Sequence record: MH571750.1
Direction: 5' to 3' (one strand)
Length of the DNA stretch: 64,000 nt
Source: Escherichia phage vB_EcoM-Ro111lw
The notes beneath the pieces are model-generated. The model made no database searches, was not told where the DNA came from, and saw nothing but the letters and a program-made list of their open reading frames with translations. Below, piece after piece: positions 11,036 to 11,807 of this stretch; position 1 is the stretch's first letter, and the number at the start of each line of letters is the position of its first letter. Both the position numbers and the translations under genes were made by a program.

Positions 11036-11108
11036 CAGAAGACCAATTACAGCAAACTTAATCTTATTCATCTGACACGAAATCGGACAAAGAAGAGATT
11101 TGGTCTGG
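11036..11108 (+). ncRNA. Repeated hairpin element A1 (5' CAGAAGACCAA..CAGCAA ... TTGGTCTGG 3'); candidate Y-RNA-like small RNA
   Basis: 5' AGACCAA pairs with 3' TTGGTCT; shares the CAGAAGACC-N-CAGCAA head and GGTCTGG tail with three other copies. Confidence 0.4.
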
Positions 11109-11119
11109 TCATTAAGAAT

Positions 11120-11196
11120 TGCGGGTATAGAGAAAGGGCGTCTCACATGTCTCATTAGCATGGTATCGGCAGGTTCGACTCCTGCACCCGCCTCCA
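11120..11196 (+). tRNA. tRNA-Met/Ile2 (anticodon CAU), non-canonical geometry (1-72 mismatch or extra connector nucleotide)
   Basis: Anticodon stem CATGT/GCATG with loop CTCATTA; T-arm GCAGG-TTCGACT-CCTGC; acceptor 3' ACCCGCC + T + CCA; D-stem GAGA/TCTC. Confidence 0.55.
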
Positions 11197-11202
11197 ATTT
11201 TG

Positions 11203-11261
11203 CAGAAGACCGTATTCAGCAACAAAATACTTTTGCGGATAAAAGAAAAAACACGGTCTGG
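11203..11261 (+). ncRNA. Repeated hairpin element A2 (CAGAAGACCGT..CAGCAA ... ACGGTCTGG)
   Basis: 5' AGACCGT pairs with 3' ACGGTCT; compensatory change relative to A1/A3. Confidence 0.4.
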
Positions 11262-11272
11262 TAATGTATTAA

Positions 11273-11349
11273 GGTTAGGAAGCACATAAGGTATGTGCGG
11301 TCGCCTGTTAAGCGAATGGCACAGGGTTCGAATCCCTGACTAACCGCCA
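11273..11349 (+). tRNA. tRNA-Asn (anticodon GUU)
   Basis: Acceptor GGTTAGG/ACTAACC, D-stem GCAC/GTGC, anticodon stem TCGC/GCGA loop CTGTTAA, T-arm CAGGG-TTCGAAT-CCCTG, CCA. Confidence 0.8.
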
Positions 11350-11357
11350 AATTAAAT

Positions 11358-11445
11358 GTGTCGTTATCCCGTAGATGGTAGCGGTGGGGACTGTAAATCC
11401 CTTGTCATTGAGACTCGGTAGGTTCGACTCCTACACGGCACACCA
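11358..11445 (+). tRNA. tRNA-Tyr (anticodon GUA), long variable arm
   Basis: Acceptor GTGTCGT/ACGGCAC, anticodon loop CTGTAAA, about 13-nt variable arm, T-arm GTAGG-TTCGACT-CCTAC, CCA. Confidence 0.8.
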
Positions 11446-11450
11446 ATAAA

Positions 11451-11527
11451 GGCTATGTAGTTTAACTGGAGAAAATACTCCCCTGTCACGGGAGATGATG
11501 TGAGTTCAAGTCTCATCGTAGCCGCCA
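11451..11527 (+). tRNA. tRNA-Asp (anticodon GUC)
   Basis: Acceptor GGCTATG/CGTAGCC, anticodon stem CTCCC/GGGAG loop CTGTCAC, T-loop TTCAAGT, CCA. Confidence 0.8.
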
Positions 11528-11550
11528 ATTTTGAGAGGGCTATTTAGCCC

Positions 11551-11585
11551 CTCCCTTAAAGAGTTCTTACGAGTATTCTTTAAAG
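11551..11585 (+). promoter_or_regulatory. Near-palindromic hairpin carrying the conserved 10-mer TTCTTACGAG (copy 1)
   Basis: ccttaaagagttcttacgagtattctttaaagg; second copy with the same 10-mer at 15421-15450. Confidence 0.35.
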
Positions 11586-11588
11586 GAG

Positions 11589-11662
11589 CAGAAGACCAAA
11601 TACAGCAAGAATGTATGAAATTTCAAGCCAATTTAATTTTGAAAATTTAAAACTTGGTCTGG
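11589..11662 (+). ncRNA. Repeated hairpin element A3 (CAGAAGACCAA..CAGCAA ... TTGGTCTGG)
   Basis: Same head/tail consensus; stem AGACCAA/TTGGTCT. Confidence 0.4.
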
Positions 11663-11675
11663 CTCAACAAATTTA

Positions 11676-11807
11676 CAGAAGACCGTTTACAGCAAAACTT
11701 AAACAATCTATTTCTCCGGTAAAGAAAAGGCGAAGGTTCGATTCCTTCACTCGGCAGATGTCGAGTTGGTGTAATGGTAGCACTTAAGATGATAAACAAC
11801 GGTCTGG
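11676..11807 (+). ncRNA. Repeated hairpin element A4 with embedded tRNA-like module (T-arm, loop-capped acceptor stem, D-arm; no anticodon arm); candidate YrlA-type Y-RNA mimic
   Basis: Outer stem AGACCGTT/AACGGTCT; inner GAAGG-TTCGATT-CCTTC (T-arm) + ACTCGGC / GTCGAGT (7-bp acceptor closed by a short loop) + GTGT-AATGGTA-GCAC (D-arm). Confidence 0.45.

Follow-up and report, generated by a model that had tools for sequence, protein, structure and literature searches.

We describe here four small elements, E1 to E4, in the tRNA cluster of Escherichia phage vB_EcoM-Ro111lw, located in a stretch of 64,000 nucleotides (nt) of sequence record MH571750.1 (hereafter the window, to which the coordinates refer unless another genome is named). 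From sequence comparison and structure prediction we propose that the four elements are probably genes for small non-coding RNAs, and the putative cognate partners of a predicted Ro60-fold protein encoded 5' of them; the phage would thus encode a ribonucleoprotein (RNP) of the Ro60/Y-RNA type. All four copies lie on the same strand and follow the design CAGAAGACC-NN-WTN-CAGCAA ... NN-GGTCTGG, in which each copy has a 7-bp helix, an internal loop of 3 nt against 1 nt, and a 3-bp outer helix that covaries between the copies (Table 1). The predicted RNAs would measure about 55-75 nt in three cases and about 130 nt in the fourth, which contains a tRNA-mimicking domain.

The pattern CAGAAGACCNNWTNCAGCAA has exactly four matches in the whole window (at 11036, 11203, 11589 and 11676, all on the + strand), with 0.02 matches expected by chance from 100 shuffles; allowing up to two mismatches adds no further match in the window. 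The tail NNGGTCTGG closes each of the four copies, and the variable dinucleotides of head and tail are complementary, AA/TT in E1 and E3 and GT/AC in E2 and E4. With ARAGORN, the elements are found interleaved with tRNAs in the order Glu-E1-Met-E2-Asn and Asp-E3-E4-Lys. An earlier note, made from the letters of the window, had reported the four copies, their complementary dinucleotides and their interleaving with tRNAs, and in these respects it was right; it had also seen the main helix, which has 7 bp, while overlooking the outer 3-bp helix, so that the full spans in Table 1 replace its element boundaries. The hexamer CAGCAA is invariant in the four copies, where it is preceded by UUA, AUU, AUA or UUA, and in about 90 of the 91 matches to the wider family that is described below.

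The folding energies of the single copies are unremarkable (z -1.1 to -2.0), and the case for a structure thus rests on comparison of sequences. In single-sequence folds the outer helix is GAC/GUC, UGC/GUA, AGC/GCU or UAC/GUA, and is separated from the main helix by a 5'-AGA-3'/G internal loop. RNAalifold was applied to 11 orthologous and paralogous copies from this phage, Shigella phage Sf19, Citrobacter phage Mordin and Yersinia phage P778, two of these phages representing Mooglevirus; it returned the 7-bp helix, a 5'-ANA-3'/1-nt internal loop and the 3-bp outer helix, with seven of the ten pairs kept via double changes and a single broken cell. In P778 the helix reads GGACU/AGUCC or GGAUU/AAUCC, compared to AGACC/GGUCU here, at equivalent positions among the tRNAs, and the Mordin helix includes a G-U pair (AGGCC/GGUCU). 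This retention of pairing through compensatory changes, across copies as well as phages, points to elements that act at the level of RNA and not of DNA, as the earlier note had supposed. Two other roles were considered and rejected: a kink-turn in the ANA/G internal loop, since the A-U and G-C pairs on either side of the loop covary in Watson-Crick fashion (UGG..CCA, GGG..CCC) and tandem G-A pairs are missing, and a terminator or attenuator, since the stems are AU-rich, the loops long, and no U tract follows.

The proposed protein partner is the product of the gene that precedes the elements on the same strand, E1 to E4 lying 333-1108 nt 3' of it and thus within the roughly 4 kb used as criterion for YrlA-type RNAs. 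It matches Pfam DUF2828 and DUF7788 as well as PHROG 850 ('RNA-binding protein'). [quoted passage not shown] When this model was compared to the PDB with Foldseek, the 12 best matches were all Ro60/TROVE structures, aligned over the whole length with E values of 3e-8 to 2e-6; six of the 35 relatives also match Pfam vWA_Ro60 weakly (best 1.7e-4). The modelling thus gives a clear result, which predicts a Ro60-fold protein belonging to a separate sequence family. By tblastn, this family is present in 709 of about 50,700 cultured phage records, with hosts that include Escherichia, Mycobacterium, Salmonella, Vibrio, Listeria, Staphylococcus, Campylobacter, Enterococcus, Bacillus, Aeromonas and others, and the mycobacteriophage homologues are annotated as 'Ro-like RNA binding protein'. 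The best 120 matches of a protein search all come from phages, and DUF2828 has also been reported for plants and mimivirus-like proteins.

The RNA design accompanies this gene far beyond the present phage. A relaxed descriptor of helix plus CAGCAA had proved unspecific, with 13.5 matches per shuffled window, and stricter rules and covariance models were used instead. Our collection comprised 80 viral contigs encoding a homologue of the protein, of which 65 are distant (38-47% identity, 1.15 Mb). In these 65 loci we counted 97 occurrences of TACAGCAA on the gene strand and 8 on the opposite one; for strict elements, defined as a perfect helix of at least 7 bp starting with RGR (optionally after 1-2 U), a 2-4-nt linker, CAGCAA and the complementary tail plus G, the corresponding counts are 72 and 1. 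A covariance model, R1, built from 31 strict elements and specifying only five base pairs, gives 91 matches at E<=1 in 68 other loci, all on the gene strand; in the window it finds E1 to E4 only, and it finds nothing at the syntenic locus (16 kb) in Pectobacterium phage Arno162, where the tRNA cluster is present and the DUF2828 gene is not. In the alignment fitted by R1, 97.9% of cells are paired and double changes are present in all five pairs, and the covariation score is 0.65, whereas shuffles reach 0.20 and slid partners no more than 0.15. The consensus of the family can be written A-A-G-R-NNNN-(U)U-W-CAGCAA, a variable A-rich loop, and NNNN-Y-C-U-G, with A at column 8 in 65 of 91 matches, G at column 10 in 89 of 91, and the 3' G in 76 of 86.

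These data also bear on a reading at the level of DNA, in which the copies would be miniature inverted-repeat elements, recombination sites or targets of homing endonucleases that shuffle tRNA cassettes. Head and tail do form an inverted repeat around a variable 'cargo', and an HNH endonuclease ORF (open reading frame; 13538-13951) is present in the tRNA cluster. We nonetheless regard this as very improbable: the strand bias is 91:0 for R1 matches and 72:1 for strict elements, the design is asymmetric, with CAGCAA on the 5' side only and a loop of 3 nt against 1 nt, G-U pairs are tolerated, and the helix sequence drifts at syntenic positions while its pairing is kept; in addition, target-site duplications are absent and the copies differ from one another.

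At E<=0.01, R1 gives 58 matches in 46 of the 65 distant loci, and 34 of these matches (59%) lie within 1 kb of the gene, compared to 12% expected (p 2.5e-17, uncorrected for kinship between loci). A test in the reverse direction, starting from one head variant, AAAGGATNNNTWCAGCAAA, gave at least 120 matching stretches in the viral collection, of which 80 loci were examined. The complementary tail is present in 52 of the 80; a DUF2828 homologue lies in the examined stretch of 17 of these 52, invariably on the element's strand and in most cases at a distance of 100-570 nt, and in none of the examined stretches of the 28 loci that lack the tail. Several more of the matches are on contigs already known to encode DUF2828. 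In many lineages without tRNAs nearby, elements lie tens to hundreds of nt from the gene, and in three loci (L023, L030 and L041) they adjoin the gene with no tRNA in the locus; the association of element and gene is thus independent of tRNAs, and it extends to Gram-positive phages such as Listeria phage LP-048.

The complete design, from the A-AGR-helix through UWCAGCAA and the variable loop to the helix-YCU-G end, recurs next to DUF2828 in metagenomic phage contigs and in one phage each of Yersinia, Listeria and Mycobacterium. Listeria phage LP-048 has two elements just 5' of the gene (R1 27.8 and 35.2 bits), with tRNAs, a ROOL RNA and an RtcB ligase gene at most 3 kb away, RtcB being 1.3 kb from the DUF2828 gene; the latter arrangement recalls the bacterial operon rsr-yrlBA-rtcBA (PMC7790460). 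The features of LP-048 at 1427-1978, 2959-4479 and 5810-7021 comprise the ROOL match (90 bits, gathering score 99), three tRNAs, the DUF2828 gene with its two Class I-like elements, and RtcB, all within 7 kb. An annotated polynucleotide kinase is found in the neighbourhood of a relative, and genes for transfer-messenger RNA (tmRNA) lie 2-7 kb from DUF2828 in three distant metagenomic phages (L055, 16909-17286; L067, 13710-14201; L081, 15284-15705). In Vibrio phage phi-pp2, two long candidate elements (about 340-470 and 2598-2860) lie among tRNAs, 3-5 kb 5' of DUF2828; their heads read ..AUACAGCAA and ..GUACAGCAA, with a long terminal helix GCAAUA-AGACAUU / AAUGUCU-[GUG]-UAUUGC, and R1 does not score them.

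The long form, E4, encloses a module with the parts of a tRNA in circularly permuted order (Table 1). The Rfam tRNA model aligns with its V, T and acceptor 3' strand (22.9 bits, E 0.007), and the succession of variable hairpin, T arm, acceptor-like stem and D arm (V-T-AS-D), with a protein-binding head on the 5' side and a tail on the 3' side, corresponds to the layout of YrlA (PMC4201824). Only E4 has this module; E1 to E3 are without it, as is YrlB. In the E4 orthologues of Mooglevirus the module is retained, and its acceptor-like stem shows compensatory changes (ACUCGGC/GUCGAGU vs ACACG../..CGUGU and CCCUUC/GAAGGG); T/AS/D modules within an identical head and tail frame are found in four unrelated phages (L027, L039, L070 and L023). 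These observations speak against E4 and its companions being decayed, functionless tRNA genes or fragments, a reading for which the T-, D- and acceptor-like parts and the tRNA model score could be cited, and which we find extremely improbable: E1 to E3 have no tRNA features, the 7-bp and 5-bp stems of the permuted module are intact, and the same permuted layout recurs in phages that are not related. Three long members of the family (L024, 2094-2204; L027, 9699-9813; L045, 9645-9769) have a common insert, CCUUUCCGGAGGGGAAAGCAAAAACUCGCC, in the place where others carry the tRNA-like module, which suggests that the effector domains of the family are interchangeable.

Table 1. Coordinates of the features described in the window, with the basis on which each was assigned.
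Feature	Coordinates	Strand	Basis	Parts
E1	11034..11110	+	R1 46 bits, E 4.5e-8; RNAalifold	outer helix 11034-11036/11108-11110; AGA 11037-11039 against G11107; helix 11040-11046/11100-11106; linker UUA; CAGCAA 11050-11055; variable loop 44 nt
E2	11201..11263	+	R1 50.5 bits	outer helix 11201-11203/11261-11263; helix 11207-11213/11253-11259; linker AUU; CAGCAA 11217-11222; loop 30 nt, A-rich run at its end
E3	11587..11664	+	R1 36.9 bits; RNAalifold	outer helix 11587-11589/11662-11664; helix 11593-11599/11654-11660; linker AUA; CAGCAA 11603-11608; loop 45 nt
E4, long form	11674..11809	+	R1 20 bits, partial	head helix 11680-11686; linker UUA; CAGCAA 11690-11695; tail 11799-11805; G11806; outer helix 11807-11809
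Circularly permuted tRNA-like module inside E4	11698..11788	+	minimum free energy fold, Rfam tRNA, T-arm scan	closing stem 5 bp, CUUAA 11698-11702/UUAAG 11784-11788; V hairpin 11711-11727; T arm GAAGG-UUCGAUU-CCUUC 11732-11748; acceptor-like stem 7 bp, capped by 4-nt loop, 11749-11766; D arm GUGU-AAUGGUA-GCAC 11769-11783
Gene for 471-aa DUF2828+DUF7788 protein, predicted Ro60-fold ring and vWA with MIDAS; proposed partner	9286..10701	+	Pfam, predicted fold	
First tRNA block	10867..12262	+	ARAGORN, Rfam tRNA, sequence	Pro, Glu, Met, Asn, Tyr, Asp, Lys, Met, Ile
Promoter-like site 5' of tRNA/RNA operon	10811..10840	+	consensus scan only	TTGACA-18-TAAAGT with TG
Second promoter-like site	10720-10748	+	consensus scan only	

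The link to YrlA becomes closer in mycobacteriophage Krypton555, where three tandem RNAs follow the DUF2828+DUF7788 gene (4462-4720), each framed as GUGGAC..-CAGCAA...GUCCAGU. The middle one, which has a T/AS/D module, matches the Rfam YrlA model with 38.3 bits (E 1.8e-5, gathering score 69), a match that covers model positions 24-84 only, that is, the tRNA-like core and not the Rsr-binding head. The frame GGAC../..GUCC-AG is common to Krypton555 and the enterobacterial Yersinia phage P778, despite their very different hosts. P778 also has orphan T-arm-like motifs (GGGTTCGATTCCC and others) outside its ARAGORN tRNAs, at 7196-7218, 7436-7459, 8318-8332 and 8552-8566; they sit in large gaps of the tRNA cluster and may be further tRNA-like RNAs.

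TROVE-type Ro60 proteins, bacterial as well as phage-encoded, work with adjacent Y-like RNAs whose head reads GNCGAA(N)G or CGAA (PMC4201824; PMC12135203), and the one of Thermus phage phiLo binds two such neighbours, Yrl1 and Yrl2, as well as the host PNPase (PMC12135203). For Ro60 and Y RNA, both tethering of PNPase and gating of misfolded RNA into the ring have been described (Chen 2013/2014, PMC4201824); the phage set of Chen 2014 comprised 22 phages, selected by TROVE annotation in GenBank (PMC4201824). The elements studied here are like YrlA/YrlB with Rsr (RF02553) and like Yrl1/Yrl2 of phiLo in being small RNAs a few hundred nt from a Ro60-fold gene on the same strand, with a terminal stem in which the 5' end pairs with the 3' end, and a short conserved motif near the 5' end; like YrlA/YrlB, they also combine one long V/T/AS/D form with short forms, occur in several copies per locus, and in some genomes have RtcB close by. 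They differ in that the putative partner is DUF2828/DUF7788 and not Pfam TROVE, in the motif, UWCAGCAA instead of GNCGAA(N)G or CGAA, and in their position inside a tRNA operon in the window. With metazoan Y RNA and Ro60 (RF00019) they share a terminal helix interrupted by an asymmetric internal loop or bulge, which there is the protein-binding module, a variable effector loop, and a ring-shaped HEAT-repeat and vWA partner, which is predicted here; in contrast, there is no sequence similarity to metazoan Y RNAs, no GGUCCGA/bulged-C helix, no RNA polymerase III (Pol III) transcription unit and no La-binding U tail. Motif type thus varies with protein type, CAGCAA going with DUF2828-type proteins and CGAA with TROVE-type ones (the latter according to PMC4201824 and PMC12135203), and the picture suggested by the sequences is that of a DUF2828-type ring with a UWCAGCAA head as a system parallel to TROVE-type Ro60 with a CGAA head.

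A second resemblance leads to the dictyostelid amoebae, whose Class I RNAs are reportedly treated in earlier work by Aspegren in 2004 and by Avesson in 2011. Class I RNAs (RF01414) are abundant, free RNAs of 42-65 nt with a 6-bp stem that joins their ends and is conserved in structure and not in sequence; the 5' stem strand is adjoined by an 11-nt motif, CCUUACAGCAA, in which C6, C9, A10 and A11 are near-invariant, the ends AAG and CUGU are conserved while the interior is variable, and the family has been reported as absent outside Dictyostelia (Kjellin 2021, PMC7919456). RF01414 is the only Rfam family besides tRNA that aligns end to end with one of our elements, E2, which scores 22 bits over the full model length; E4 scores 12.8 bits, both below the gathering score of 41.5, and E1 and E3 have E>10. 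Seven distant loci gave no gathering-level match to RF01414. The shared design comprises a length of about 60 nt, a 6-8-bp end-joining stem conserved in structure and not in sequence, the motif (C)UUACAGCAA immediately 3' of the 5' stem strand, an AAG start and CUG(U) end as far as these can be read from the phage DNA (AAG-stem-CUUACAGCAA...stem-CUGU in the amoebae), a variable A-rich interior, and occasional long members with inserted hairpins, some of them T-arm-like. Among the published sequences (PMC7919456), a D. purpureum DpuR RNA, GAAUUC-CUUACAGCAA..GAAUUC-UG, can be set beside a phage element, (A)GAAUCA-UUACAGCAA..UGAUUC-UG, and the asu_can entries, GGUCUC-AUCACAGCAA...GAGACC-UG, beside the window copies, (A)GACCAA-UUACAGCAA...UUGGUC-UG. 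A-AG...CU-G can be read in the DNA of all four copies, as in the consensus of the family, with the extra outer helix lying beyond it in the window copies. The part of the motif 5' of CAGCAA is looser in the window copies than in the amoebae.

The resemblance was assessed with a model, R2, built from 35 dictyostelid RNAs only. R2 gave 43 matches at E<=1 in 70 phage loci, 41 of them on the strand of the gene; the 20 with E<0.01 coincide without exception with R1 coordinates and lie on the gene strand (the best with 35.3 bits, E 1.6e-5). In the window it finds E2 alone, with 14.8 bits and E 0.17. Because a model made purely from amoeba RNAs recovers the phage elements at R1 coordinates, the phage family as a whole is like Class I RNAs far beyond chance, the window copies being a somewhat divergent branch below the Rfam threshold. 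The likeness may stem from common descent, or from convergence on homologous binding proteins. There are also differences: the phage RNAs are encoded in bacteriophage genomes, without the DUSE promoter that lies about 60 nt upstream in the amoebae and without a Pol III-type terminator, are embedded in a tRNA operon 3' of sigma-70-like sites, and in the window have a 7-bp helix, the additional outer helix and WUN linkers. On balance we put forward, as a possibility that falls somewhat short of being likely, that phage elements and Class I RNAs form one RNA family of Y-RNA-like partners of DUF2828-type Ro60 paralogues. The preprint of the Kjellin paper lists DDB_G0281243, a protein of unknown function, as pulled down with DdR-21, along with GuaB, NdkC and CIBP/Rnp1A; the partial proteome files in the Kjellin supplement hold no match to the motifs of the DUF2828 family, and in the literature searched we found no paper that connects Class I RNAs with phages, Ro60 or DUF2828. 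T-arm-like hairpins (GGUUCGAUCC, GGUUCGAAUCC) are present in some of the amoeba RNAs (asu_can_20, ppa_can_99 and DpuR-22; PMC7919456 supplement), and another subgroup (DdR-66/67, DpuR-27 to 30) has a common insert, GGUGUAGAAUAGGUGGGAG...GUGAAAUACCACC.

Several points weigh against a Ro60/Y-RNA-type RNP. On the protein side, none of the 35 family members matches Pfam TROVE (PF05731) at E<=1, and a sequence profile reaches Ro60 in the PDB only at E 0.6, such searches being uninformative (E 0.6-1); the relationship to Ro60 therefore rests on predicted structure. On the RNA side, neither of the Rfam models that the earlier note had named as a check, Y_RNA and YrlA, matches any of the four copies at E<=10, including in a 166-nt search, and the single-stranded motif UWCAGCAA is unlike every known Ro-binding motif (GGUCCGA, and GNCGAAG of Ro/Rsr); CGAA is absent from all four copies, whose head is AGACCNN-WUN-CAGCAA and not the GNCGAA(N)G of YrlA. 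(The only YrlA row in the window, at 15473-15595 with 17 bits, overlaps tRNA-His/Phe and was rejected as noise.) As for the association, R1 has no match at E<=0.01 in 19 of the 65 distant loci, some elements lie 5-8 kb away from the gene, locus counts are not independent because the loci are mutually related, and pairing percentages are partly built in because the models R1 and A4 were seeded with perfect-helix elements and the alignment is structure-fitted. Finally, the only protein for which direct binding of Class I RNA has been demonstrated in Dictyostelium is the RRM protein Rnp1A/CIBP (PMC7919456), and any downstream function, be it surveillance, repair, decoy or nuclease hijack, is putative and proposed by analogy only.

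The distant elements and the binding by Rnp1A would also suit an alternative in which E1 to E4 are real small RNAs with another partner, such as host PNPase, Hfq, an RRM- or La-like protein or another phage protein, acting as sponges or decoys, with DUF2828 merely co-resident in 'RNA islands'; the neighbourhoods of DUF2828 are indeed rich in tRNAs, tmRNA and ROOL. We consider this unlikely in view of the elements that abut the gene in many tRNA-less lineages, the enrichment within 1 kb, the reverse search, which yields DUF2828 only with the full element, and the correspondence of motif type and protein type. The Y-RNA-like layout proposed in the earlier note thus stands in part: the predicted Ro60-fold neighbour, the V/T/AS/D module of E4, the way in which the design follows DUF2828 and the YrlA match in Krypton555 agree with it, while the motif and the protein family are not those of Y RNAs and TROVE, and the nearest RNA family by sequence and structure is that of the Class I RNAs. 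In our best reading, E1 to E4 are Y-RNA-like putative partners of a DUF2828-type Ro60 paralogue, probably released from the transcript of the tRNA operon.

The genomic setting is consistent with such a release. The window belongs to a Felix O1-type myovirus (Felixounavirus), and its region 10700-12300 is matched by 267 phage records, of which 235 cover 80% or more of the query. E1 to E4 lie in the first block of a cluster of 26 tRNAs, at 5-10 nt from the adjacent tRNAs. A consensus scan showed no promoter or terminator of their own for individual elements and no + strand terminator-like site between the promoter-like site at 10811 and the next one at 12278, from which we infer that E1 to E4 are co-transcribed with the tRNAs.

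The close spacing and the missing promoters and terminators would also fit elements that act in cis within longer transcripts, as processing or punctuation signals of tRNA precursors or as autoregulatory operator sites of DUF2828, instead of stand-alone RNAs; the one or two copies seen in many phages at a possible 5' or 3' untranslated region (UTR) of the gene point the same way. We judge this quite unlikely, since the four window copies lie 3' of two promoter-like sites and outside the mRNA, most tRNA junctions of the same cluster have no element, the variable loops can carry elaborate tRNA-like domains, Krypton555 has its tandem array of three, and the amoeba look-alikes are free RNAs (PMC7919456).

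For a DUF2828-type RNP, we envisage the following. Transcription would start at the sigma-70-like promoter at about 10811 and yield a polycistronic tRNA precursor, from which the RNAs could be released by the enzymes that trim the tRNAs, namely RNase P at the 5' ends of downstream tRNAs and cuts of the RNase E/Z type after upstream ones. The 5' and 3' ends would then pair, as in the predicted fold, into the terminal helix (outermost A-U, G-C and R-Y, then the 3' G), exposing U-W-C-A-G-C-A-A as a single strand. Because the type of motif co-varies with the type of protein, we suggest that this head and tail module is the docking site for the DUF2828-type ring, as are the GGUCCGA and GNCGAAG heads for TROVE-type Ro60/Rsr. 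The variable loop would be the effector part, in which E4 might mimic tRNA as YrlA does; by the same analogy, it could recruit tRNA-handling enzymes or a host exoribonuclease (e.g. PNPase), or serve as a decoy. During infection the complex might act on tRNAs and other structured RNAs, by surveillance, repair or protection, or it might divert the RNA decay of the host. The neighbourhoods with phage tRNA sets, tmRNA, RtcB and polynucleotide kinase are consistent with a role in RNA repair or counter-defence, without being proof of it.

The cluster holds further features of its own. Directly 3' of E4 and 5' of tRNA-Lys, a perfect 19-bp long-range stem (AATTATCTTTGTAGATAAG / CTTATCTACAAAGATAATT; 11808-11954) encloses about 100 nt and may be another structured RNA of the operon. 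Between tRNA-Lys and tRNA-Met lies a 78-nt element (12031-12108) with the core CTGCGCGGCTGGAAACACCCACTCAACAG and pairing arms on both sides, which has no Rfam match; the core recurs with other arms in Yersinia phage P778 (about 7988-8050). Judged by tRNA spacing, this element seems to be missing in phage humlepung, which may account for the match that is shorter by about 71 nt in many other Felixounavirus genomes; from the tRNA positions of one relative, this length difference appears to lie at or near 12031-12108 and not within E1 to E4. No tRNA occupies the gaps 12263-12537 and 13105-13204, where there are a strong promoter-like site (12278-12306) and a long hairpin that gives a spurious plant miRNA match (32.7 bits); the tmRNA_permuted model matches weakly at 12204-12388 (29 bits). 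The ORF at 13538-13951 inside the cluster has 137 aa and a weak HNH endonuclease match (E 0.005); endonuclease ORFs of other Felixounavirus and Mooglevirus genomes lie at differing positions of the cluster.

Thus, DUF2828/DUF7788, a widespread phage family of unknown function, gains a candidate role that can be tested, and a candidate account is offered for gaps left without annotation in the tRNA clusters of Felix O1-type phages, a group used in typing and biocontrol of Salmonella and E. coli. For the field of Ro60 and Y RNA, the findings point to a second protein lineage with a different RNA motif, permit a comparison of how rings read their RNAs, and invite the question why such complexes go together in phages with sets of tRNAs, tmRNA and RtcB. 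Should the link to Class I RNAs hold, the 20-year-old question of their function would be reopened with a candidate partner and mechanism named, and the claim that they are unique to Dictyostelia would be overturned: they would then not be an amoeba invention tied to multicellularity, and would represent the eukaryotic branch of an ancient or horizontally exchanged Ro-like RNP that hundreds of phages infecting Gram-negative, Gram-positive and mycobacterial hosts possess as well. Any DUF2828 proteins of dictyostelids, and possibly those of plants and giant viruses, would be predicted to bind AAG-stem-UUACAGCAA RNAs, and DDB_G0281243 may be the dictyostelid partner of the DUF2828 type.

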